Position numbers and translations under genes: made by a program. The notes beneath the pieces were generated by a model, which made no database searches, was not told where the DNA came from, and saw nothing but the letters and a program-made list of their open reading frames with translations. A stretch of 64,000 nucleotides of DNA from the NCBI GenBank assembly GCA_963664305.2, contig CAXXLV010000001.1, positions 736,001-800,000 on the forward strand, in the 5' to 3' direction. Source of the DNA: an uncultured Aliarcobacter sp. (GTDB lineage: Bacteria > Campylobacterota > Campylobacteria > Campylobacterales > Arcobacteraceae). Positions 15,099 through 15,443 of this stretch are shown piece after piece. Position 1 is the first letter of the stretch; every line of letters begins with the position of its first letter.

Positions 15099-15443
15099 TT
15101 ATTTTAATTTGAATGGTTTTACTAAAATGTCACCTTTGATTAACATCATTGGTGCAATTCTGATTTTTGGGCTAATTGTAAATTGTTGGCATTGCTCTGC
15201 CTCTTTTGAACTAATAGCACCAAGTTTAACTAAGATGTCTAACTCTTCATCTTCCATGTAACTTGTTGGTTCTTCATTACTTAAGTTTTCAACAGAAATT
15301 AAACACTTAGAATAATCACCATCAACTGCGAAAGGAATTGGAATATTCTTTTCCTTTGCTAGCCTAACAATAGGCTCACCTATCTTGCCTTCATACACTC
15401 CGTCAGTTTCCATGTCAAAATGCATAAAAATTACTTTTGCCAT
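15099..15443 (-). CDS. FeSII/Shethna II-like ferredoxin-fold protein lacking three of four Cys ligands
   Basis: IPFAVDGDYSKCL vs [14 protein letters not shown] and RIAPM vs RLACQ (FeSII from memory); strong SD AGGAGG. Confidence 0.7.
   Translation of the reverse strand: MAKVIFMHFDMETDGVYEGKIGEPIVRLAKEKNIPIPFAVDGDYSKCLISVENLSNEEPTSYMEDEELDILVKLGAISSKEAEQCQQFTISPKIRIAPMMLIKGDILVKPFKLK

Follow-up and report, generated by a model that had tools for sequence, protein, structure and literature searches.

What does a ferredoxin-like protein do in a nitrogen fixation (nif) operon once most of its iron-sulfur ligands are gone? The question is raised by a gene on the minus strand of a 64,000-nt stretch of DNA from an uncultured Aliarcobacter sp. 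(contig CAXXLV010000001.1, positions 736,001 to 800,000), which we call the window. The open reading frame (ORF) at 15099-15443 (-) begins with ATG, has 114 codons and translates exactly as quoted in a preliminary description of this DNA, where the product was taken for a protein like FeSII (Shethna II) that has lost its [2Fe-2S] ligands. We refer to the protein as X114 and to its family as X. The gene and its parts, among them an inserted loop (the N-loop) with two helices, hN1 and hN2, are as follows.

15099..15443 (-): X114, 114-aa cluster-free FeSII-type protein; coding sequence including the stop codon
15449..15454 (-): Shine-Dalgarno sequence AGGAGG, 5 nt ahead of the X114 ATG; read from the sequence
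15303..15338 (-): former cluster-binding loop, residues 36-47; from the FeSII alignment
15165..15281 (-): N-loop insert, residues ~55-93; from DSSP of the model and the invariant columns
15189..15191 (-): Cys85 codon (CQQ motif), at the C-terminal end of hN2; invariant in 121/121 alignment rows
15144..15152 (-): P98-M99-M100, in place of C-Q-T/M at the fourth-ligand site; from the comparison of classes

Relationship of X114 to FeSII

When all PDB chains were searched with phmmer at E <= 10, X114 matched three distinct sequences, all of them FeSII (A. beijerinckii 9iey, 2.1e-6; A. vinelandii 5ffi, 2.6e-5; 9cu1_N, 7.3e-5), with X114 residues 24-108 aligned to FeSII residues 26-112. No ordinary ferredoxin was among these matches, and a profile of 46 family members retrieved from the PDB the same three FeSII sequences and no others. 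Against Pfam and NCBIfam, X114 gave no match at E <= 1, PF00111 included; in the ESM Atlas it led to its own unnamed cluster and to generic Fer2 clusters, and to nothing further. Judged by sequence, FeSII is the sole solved relative of the protein.

The AlphaFold2 model obtained on the family alignment (pLDDT 88.1, pTM 0.80) has an adrenodoxin-type beta-grasp fold and the extended N-loop that is a trait of the FeSII family, with hN1 at residues 65-74 and hN2 at residues 79-88 (DSSP). Superposed on FeSII chain 9cu1_N, 113 of its 114 residues fit at 2.3 A. Both Foldseek and VIA rank FeSII first; in the same structure comparison other FeSII states and R. capsulatus FdC came at about 11, and plant-type and adrenodoxin-type ferredoxins at 8-10. 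In the FeSII family this insert makes up about a third of the chain, and according to the passages of Franke et al. (2025; PMC11754109) that deal with the fold, hN2 is not found in other adrenodoxin-type ferredoxins. The assignment to FeSII and not to a generic ferredoxin, together with the long helical insert on which it leaned, is thus borne out by sequence and by model.

Three of the four FeSII ligands, C42, C47 and C50, are numbered here after the same passages (PMC11754109), and the fourth, C102, was counted along the alignment. Opposite C42 there is a one-residue gap beside X114 A39; C47 is replaced by Y44, C50 is kept as C47, and the Cys of FeSII RLACQ is replaced by P98. The third ligand alone remains, as had been proposed, and residues 36-47 form a loop that is 1-2 residues shorter than that of FeSII. 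X114 therefore lacks the full set of four Cys ligands of a [2Fe-2S] cluster that marks members of the FeSII family. The second cysteine that had been noticed within the insert (EQCQQ) is C85; it aligns to FeSII A89.

Distribution and conservation of the family

A search of 5.8 billion cluster representatives yielded 190 relatives of X114 at E <= 0.01. The best 120 of these are 69-99% identical to it and mostly named 'hypothetical protein', the named sources being Arcobacteraceae, Sulfurospirillum and unclassified Campylobacterota. A profile run against 1.84 billion 50%-identity representatives found just 18 at E <= 0.001; the distant ones among them keep C-x4-C-x2-C...C, and one cluster is named from Sulfuricurvum. 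In a further profile search the best 120 of 1992 matches came from Campylobacterota only, and those of them that carry PF00111 include records named 2Fe-2S-binding, while the known cluster-free members are without a Pfam domain.

In species-representative genomes, 97 stretches matched the pattern, 92 of them encode a relative, and 80 loci were kept. The order nifZ-X-Fer2, where Fer2 is the [2Fe-2S] ferredoxin gene that follows X, is identical in all 80; nifW, flavodoxin, DUF269 and nifX precede wherever the stored flank is long enough, and rpoN comes after Fer2 in 75 loci (counted from the table). X has a fixed place in the nif clusters of Campylobacterota, whose genes run nifX-DUF269-fld-nifW-nifZ-X-Fer2-rpoN. 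X114 has this position as well as the motifs MAKVIFMHF, EEPTSYMED, CQQFT.SPK and KGD..KP, which are invariant or nearly so. Its N-loop insert carries the near-invariant motifs EEPTSYMEDEEL and CQQFTISPK.

An alignment of 46 diverse members has 43 invariant columns and a mean column identity of 80%. In an alignment of 121 rows, variation is greatest in what was the cluster loop and smallest in the N-loop. At position 47, 98 rows have Cys and 23 have Ser; position 44 holds Tyr in 110 rows, Phe in 7, His in 3 and Leu in 1, and position 98 holds Pro in 107 and Ser in 14.

A cluster-bearing and a cluster-free class occupy the same locus

We scanned 401 Campylobacterota genomes with a cluster-bearing protein of the Sulfuricurvum type. 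Thirty-five of them had one match each and never two, so that, with the window's own genome, X is single-copy throughout; none of the genomes searched holds both forms of X. When 29 scan loci and the window's own were laid out, the match lay between nifZ and Fer2 in 28 of 30. The exceptions are L099, whose short flanks contain no nif gene, and L091, a broken copy that still has its Fer2 neighbour. L091 (G296:C1:1442779-1443099) is the sole broken copy among all 110 loci classified, its X homologue being cut by one TGA and one TAA.

The 110 loci comprise the 80 species-representative loci, the 29 scan loci and the window's own, some genomes being present in both sets. All four ligands are found in 30, of which 23 also have the CQQ cysteine (pattern CCCCC), and 79 are cluster-free, having lost two or three ligands; the reading frame is intact in 109. 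Replacements mostly follow the pattern ..Y.C..P in Arcobacteraceae and ..Y/H.C..S in the main Sulfurospirillum group, and three Sulfurovaceae loci show C.P.C..S, with two ligands left. The cluster-bearing protein of L098, a locus of the family to which the window belongs, is 69% identical to X114, and its PDB matches are FeSII alone (9.2e-13 to 2.8e-11).

The expectation that orthologues would also have lost the ligand cysteines is thus met by the 79 loci that share the loss, and contradicted by the 30 that keep all four ligands in the same slot. These cluster-bearing loci are an alternative, equally conserved class and not a norm from which one strain has decayed. Strain-specific decay had been named as what would undo the assignment; it is set aside by a loss common to 79 of 110 loci in a gene under purifying selection.

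We then compared 66 distinct cluster-free with 19 distinct CCCCC-type sequences, counting a column as class-specific when the two residue sets do not overlap. Such columns number 16 of 114 in X, 0 of 98 in Fer2, 0 of 113 in NifW and 4 of 135 in NifZ. The changes in X, with residue numbers of X, are the following.

Cluster loop: C40 lost; 1-2 residues deleted; Q43 to D; C44 to Y/H/F; S46 to K/N/T
N-loop helices: M/F/K66 to Glu in 66/66; invariant K70 to I/E/L; invariant K80 to E/Q/D; T/H84 to Q/I/E
Fourth-ligand site: L96 to I; C98 to P/S/Q; Q99 to Met in 66/66; position 100 Met, fixed in 66/66
C-terminus: G113 to L/K

The class changes are confined to X and look like retuning, not like decay. 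Bulky Tyr and Met side chains stand at the former place of the cluster, and the charge is altered on both N-loop helices. The cluster site has been dismantled, two or three ligands being replaced, the loop shortened, and Tyr and Met-Met placed in the former site. X114 is a cluster-free derivative of a FeSII-type ferredoxin whose ancestor bound a [2Fe-2S] cluster.

Two further ideas about the cysteines were rejected. Every one of the 66 distinct cluster-free and the 19 distinct CCCCC-type sequences has Cys85, the latter sequences coming from 23 loci, so this residue did not arise as a replacement along with cluster loss; the thiol that had been thought of as a substitute for the cluster was already there in the closest cluster-bearing orthologues. 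A universal Cys47-Cys85 disulfide switch falls because Cys47 is Ser in 23 of the 121 aligned members (and in 13 of the 66 distinct cluster-free sequences, the other 53 having Cys).

We also note P0124, a 106-aa metagenome protein with an N-terminus like that of the long Sulfuricurvum-type forms, in which the whole cluster loop is gone and the fourth Cys is changed to D. It may represent an independent second loss; it is a single sequence from one 1.7-kb contig.

Selection on both classes

Pairwise Nei-Gojobori ratios of nonsynonymous to synonymous substitution (dN/dS) were obtained from 77 cluster-free and 29 cluster-bearing loci, using pairs with 0.1 < dS < 1.5. The medians are listed below.

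X: cluster-free 0.123 (863 pairs); cluster-bearing 0.093 (103 pairs)
Fer2: cluster-free loci 0.103; cluster-bearing loci 0.083
NifZ: cluster-free loci 0.164; cluster-bearing loci 0.191
NifW: cluster-free loci 0.221; cluster-bearing loci 0.129

Cluster-free X is as constrained as its intact Fer2 neighbour. The ranking is clear; the values themselves are approximate because the median dS, about 1.0, is near saturation, and this tells somewhat against what we build on them. The beta-grasp core and the two-helix N-loop are almost invariant and under purifying selection.

Probable exchange of X between nif clusters

Classes had been set from the ligand pattern ahead of any tree. We compared a tree of the flanking genes (NifW, NifZ and Fer2 combined; 106 rows, 342 columns) with one of X from which the cluster-loop and fourth-ligand columns had been removed (89 columns). 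The outgroup loci of the flank tree are cluster-bearing. Cluster state changes seven times on the flank tree, at least three of these changes being forced by well-supported branches, and twice on the X tree. A single cluster-free clade is rejected on the flank tree (difference in log-likelihood 219, p of the approximately unbiased test, p-AU, 6e-51) and not on the X tree, where the constrained tree is 4.7 units better (p-AU 0.61).

Pairs of loci show the same discordance at closer range (% protein identity).

L069 (cluster-free) versus L057 (cluster-bearing): Fld 92.9, NifW 94.7, NifZ 90.7, X 68.8, Fer2 95.9
L019 (cluster-free) versus the window locus: Fld 75.0, NifW 60.2, NifZ 58.1, X 78.6, Fer2 77.6

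Along the DNA of L069 and L057, identity is mostly 85-98% over nifW and nifZ, drops to 57-73% at the 3' end of nifZ and stays there over X, and is back at 90-95% in Fer2, past a repeat-filled insertion that only L057 has. This collapse of identity across X alone suggests a swapped cassette.

The two forms are alternative occupants of one locus, and the evidence points to their exchange between nif clusters as a gene-sized cassette. In the simplest reading the cluster-free allele arose once or a few times, and homologous recombination in the flanks then put it in place of the cluster-bearing allele, or the other way round. The alternative is repeated loss in place, with convergence over much of X, and it must account for a 31% difference in X where the flanks differ by 4-9%. 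Against exchange it counts that the trees were made by a quick method, that the X alignment is short at 89 columns, and that related genomes are not independent.

A repeated noncoding element lies between X and Fer2 in some loci (L057 4345-4844, L011 4342-4502). In L057 it occurs in several copies, partly masked, and stands at one edge of the swapped X cassette. No Rfam family matched it.

The nif cluster around X114

On the minus strand the genes run nifX, the DUF269/NifX-associated gene, a long-chain flavodoxin, nifW, nifZ, X114, Fer2 and rpoN. At lower coordinates, downstream on this strand, are nifH, nifD, nifK and a molybdate transport set, and at higher coordinates, upstream, nifE and nifN.

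17660..17675 (-): sigma-54-type promoter-like site TGGAACACTAATTGCA, upstream of nifX; 1 mismatch to TGGCAC-N5-TTGCW
17230-17625 (-): nifX; TIGR02663, 1.3e-33
16799-17230 (-): NifX-associated DUF269 gene; TIGR02935, 9.5e-42
16267..16788 (-): long-chain flavodoxin; PF00258, 1.1e-22
15920..16255 (-): nifW; PF03206, 1.8e-14
15538..15963 (-): nifZ; PF04319, 2.4e-25, residues 43-114
15479..15533 (-): RNA hairpin in the nifZ-X114 intergenic region; fold prediction
14792..15088 (-): Fer2, [2Fe-2S] ferredoxin, 98 aa, FdC-like, intact; PF00111, 7.8e-13
13490..14737 (-): rpoN (sigma-54), directly downstream of Fer2; NF004602, 1.6e-165
9496..10410 (-): nifH, candidate partner by analogy with FeSII; 1.7e-134 to solved NifH

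The intact ferredoxin reported 10 nt beyond X114 is this Fer2, whose best PDB match is 9i2a, 'Ferredoxin-4' or FdC of R. capsulatus (1.2e-12). X114 is encoded by the only FeSII-like gene of the window's genome: a search with a cluster-bearing relative finds it first (2e-12) and after that, only weakly, Fer2. For the flavodoxin the best NCBIfam model is FldA (9.5e-49; 165.4 bits against a cut-off of 175), and the GTG start listed for nifZ probably lies too far upstream.

Sigma-54-type sites (TGGAACACT...TTGCA) are also found ahead of nifH (10450-10465) and nifN (21585-21600), and the window has 36 sigma-54-type matches where 19.9 +/- 4.7 are expected. The site at 17660-17675 is the probable promoter of an operon from nifX to Fer2, and we infer that X114 is most likely transcribed in that operon. 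Scans for sigma-70 promoters and terminators over 14600-17800 stayed at shuffle level. The predicted hairpin between nifZ and X114 has a folding free energy of -22.8 kcal/mol (z -3.15), none of 200 shuffles being as stable, and is followed by a U-rich tract and then by the AGGAGG of X114; it could attenuate or stabilise the distal operon transcript. A search for sequencing runs that hold X114 listed none on record as RNA. Parts of X114 and of the genes next to it turn up in contigs from four runs with an RNA-Seq label (wastewater and other metagenomes); that these contigs are RNA is a guess, and they give no evidence on expression either way.

The NifH of the window keeps E69, R101, N108 and E112 (A. 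vinelandii numbering, by count). At residues ~84-96 it has a 12-residue insertion relative to solved chain 9haz. All 30 Campylobacterota NifH compared have an insertion, four of them a shorter one. Being found alongside both X classes, it is a trait of the lineage.

Other features of the nif cluster are noted here in their own right. Between nifH and nifD there is a 119-aa ORF (9092-9451, -) with no Pfam family at E <= 0.001. Two tandem paralogues (19371-19892 and 19894-20271, both -; 39% identity, E 1e-26) have no Pfam match; the 173-aa one is weakly like thiol peroxidase (PDB 9f64, 7e-5, residues 2-145), contains zero cysteines, and may be a second redox scaffold minus its redox residue in the same nif cluster. 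The segment 17690-19370 (-), between nifN and nifX, encodes a SagB-type/nitroreductase-fold protein (TIGR03605, 7e-29) and also a 147-aa ankyrin-repeat protein, inside the nif cluster. At 21673-25346 (-), eutB and eutC (ethanolamine ammonia-lyase) and an amino-acid permease separate nifE (25483-26829) from nifN (20261-21589), splitting the usual nifEN pair.

Comparison with known proteins

X114 shares with FeSII of A. vinelandii and A. beijerinckii (5ffi, 8rho, 9cu1, 9iey) the beta-grasp and the two-helix N-loop, at about 22-25% identity and 114 against 122 aa, and both are associated with nitrogenase, X114 through its nif operon context. X114 differs in that three of the four ligands are gone, an invariant Cys takes the place of the FeSII Ala at the end of hN2, and both the D44:K70 latch and the NifH-contacting R72, N73 and K76 are missing. 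It is homologous to FeSII, yet without the cluster and several functional residues it is not classed as FeSII.

Its closest counterparts are the cluster-bearing orthologues in the same slot, annotated '(2Fe-2S)-binding protein' (L098, L057 and L074 among them), which have the same neighbours and the CQQ, EEPTSYMED and KGD..KP motifs. Over the full length, L092, L093, L095, L097 and L098 are 58-69% identical to X114 (in a separate comparison L098 reached 69.9% and L074 66.4%), with a profile-profile probability of 100%. Unlike X114, they keep C-x4-C-x2-C...C and PF00111; K70, K80 and Q99 are among the 16 class-specific columns.

The nearest named Atlas clusters of X114 include one of 122 aa called 'Ferredoxin-5', a name that we take to stand for FdxD. 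A FeSII-like protective role has been proposed for the nif-linked FdxD (ferredoxin V) of Rhodobacter capsulatus and for a Gluconacetobacter ferredoxin, in the passages of PMC11301756 on such proteins. Both are nif-linked like X114, but cluster-bearing. FdC of R. capsulatus (9i2a) is described in the relevant parts of PMC12223475 as a monomer with a midpoint potential of -285 mV that, in the judgement of the authors, donates poorly to the Fe protein. Its insert is shorter, and it binds a cluster; it is a relative of Fer2 and not of X114, from whose sequence matches it is absent. In the open-access full text searched, we found no paper on cluster-free FeSII homologues or on FeSII-type proteins of Campylobacterota.

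Possible functions of X114

The mechanistic passages of PMC11754109 describe FeSII as sensing oxidation by its cluster, upon which the N-loop is released. In the same passages, hN1 grips NifH through R72, N73 and K76 (contacting NifH E69, N108 and E112), and the C-terminal end of hN2 touches NifD above the iron-molybdenum cofactor (FeMo-co). An E71:R99 salt bridge holds the N-loop to the core, and D44:K70 forms a redox-dependent latch from the cluster loop to hN1. In X114 the E71:R99 pair appears as invariant E67 and R95, and the invariant CQQ maps to the NifD-facing end of hN2.

By analogy with FeSII, we tentatively favour X114 as a redox-blind FeSII-type protein that would dock on nitrogenase components via its N-loop; we infer this binding, and hold the reading to be a little short of an even chance. 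X114 would then carry no electrons and would sense no O2 through iron-sulfur chemistry. It would dock on NifH and/or NifDK, by EEPTSYMEDEEL on hN1 and CQQFTISPK at the end of hN2, in a manner that would differ in detail from Azotobacter FeSII, and once docked it would stabilise or shield nitrogenase in FeSII fashion. Its engagement would be set by something other than a cluster of its own, such as the condition of the nitrogenase component that it binds or the thiol of its invariant Cys85.

Several observations weigh against docking of this kind. There is no counterpart of the D44:K70 latch, since position 66 is Glu (66/66) and the loop around D44 is shortened and variable. In place of R72, N73 and K76, X114 has L68, D69 and V72, and the cluster-bearing orthologues lack these residues too; NifH keeps E69 and E112, but as their partners in X114 are gone the hN1-NifH salt bridges of Azotobacter are impossible here. 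K70 and K80 of X, invariant in the cluster-bearing class, were lost together with the cluster, a pattern by which the binding function could have been weakened rather than kept. The inter-protomer residues K53, R61, R92 and D93 of FeSII are not conserved in X114, and dimerisation is therefore uncertain. Finally, protection by FeSII has been demonstrated in Azotobacter only, as far as the account in PMC11301756 goes.

A second possibility, which we regard as unlikely, is that X114 serves as a non-redox partner of the FdC-like Fer2, in a heterodimer built like the FeSII homodimer with one cluster, for docking or for tuning potential or specificity. The two genes are adjacent in 80/80 loci and in 28/30 of the loci laid out, and the gap of 10 nt between them suggests translational coupling. 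Moreover, X114 is distantly homologous to Fer2 (27% identity over 82 residues, E 5e-5), which matches FeSII as well (4e-6). However, the pairing is older than the loss of the cluster and is the same in both classes, Fer2 has 0/98 class-specific columns and hence does not co-vary with the state of X, and the X cassette has been exchanged without Fer2. In some loci X and Fer2 lie up to about 500 nt apart, and R. capsulatus FdC is monomeric in the part of PMC12223475 that treats its structure. As for the suggestion that X114 borrows the cluster of its neighbour, Fer2 accompanies both classes, and borrowing is therefore not specific to the cluster-free form.

Less probable still is a role in maturation, in which X114 would act with NifW and NifZ on immature NifDK during P-cluster or FeMo-co insertion, as a scaffold or escort and not in O2 protection. 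X comes right after nifW-nifZ across the loci examined (apart from L099, without a nif neighbour), in an operon that starts with nifX-DUF269, and the FeSII fold docks on NifD above FeMo-co according to the structural passages of PMC11754109. Synteny is nevertheless its sole basis, and the flavodoxin and ferredoxin of the operon equally indicate electron supply or protection. A maturation role for a FeSII-type protein is not known to us from the literature, where no search was aimed at it.

Equally doubtful is a bolder extension of the docking reading, in which the dimorphism itself would be long-lived and adaptive: Fe-S and iron-free alleles of the FeSII type would be traded across families, each suiting its own oxygen and iron regime, the iron-free one being a nitrogenase protector triggered by Cys85 and Met99-Met100. 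If true, it would be the first conformational-protection switch without a need for Fe-S assembly.

There is little to recommend the view that X114 binds a metal or Fe-S cluster through new ligands (C47, C85, M99-M100, H8 and Y/H44), perhaps across a dimer interface. None of the 66 distinct cluster-free sequences departs from C85, M99, M100 or H8, and a fixed Met-Met may be more specific than the filling of a cavity demands. Position 47 is Cys in 53 of these sequences and Ser in 13, and Ser is able to ligate iron too. But H8 and C85 do not vary in the cluster-bearing class either and so are not new ligands, one or two Cys per chain are the most there are, and the loop that wrapped the cluster has been shortened and varies more than any other part of the protein.

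That X114 is a functionless, decaying ferredoxin remnant is hardly credible: ligands are lost, Pfam and NCBIfam give no match and public records mostly read 'hypothetical protein', but selection and distribution contradict it, with a dN/dS of 0.12, 80% mean column identity and 43 invariant columns, an intact frame in 109/110 loci, a strong Shine-Dalgarno sequence, and a cluster-free allele spread across families.

Meaning of a cluster-free FeSII-type protein

Of the devices that shield nitrogenase reversibly from oxygen, FeSII is, to our knowledge, the only one understood in structural terms. The finding makes FeSII-type proteins a fixed part of the nif cluster across a whole phylum of microaerophiles, and since 79 of 110 loci have no cluster and are strongly constrained all the same, electron transfer cannot be what the scaffold is conserved for. 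Matched cluster-bearing and cluster-free alleles in near-identical backgrounds amount to a natural experiment on what the cluster is for. FeSII is discussed as a means to keep recombinant nitrogenase alive in crops in the applied passages of PMC11754109. If the cluster-free form protects nitrogenase, it would be easier to transplant than FeSII, as no cofactor insertion is needed; if it does not, it would show a redox protein turned into something else.

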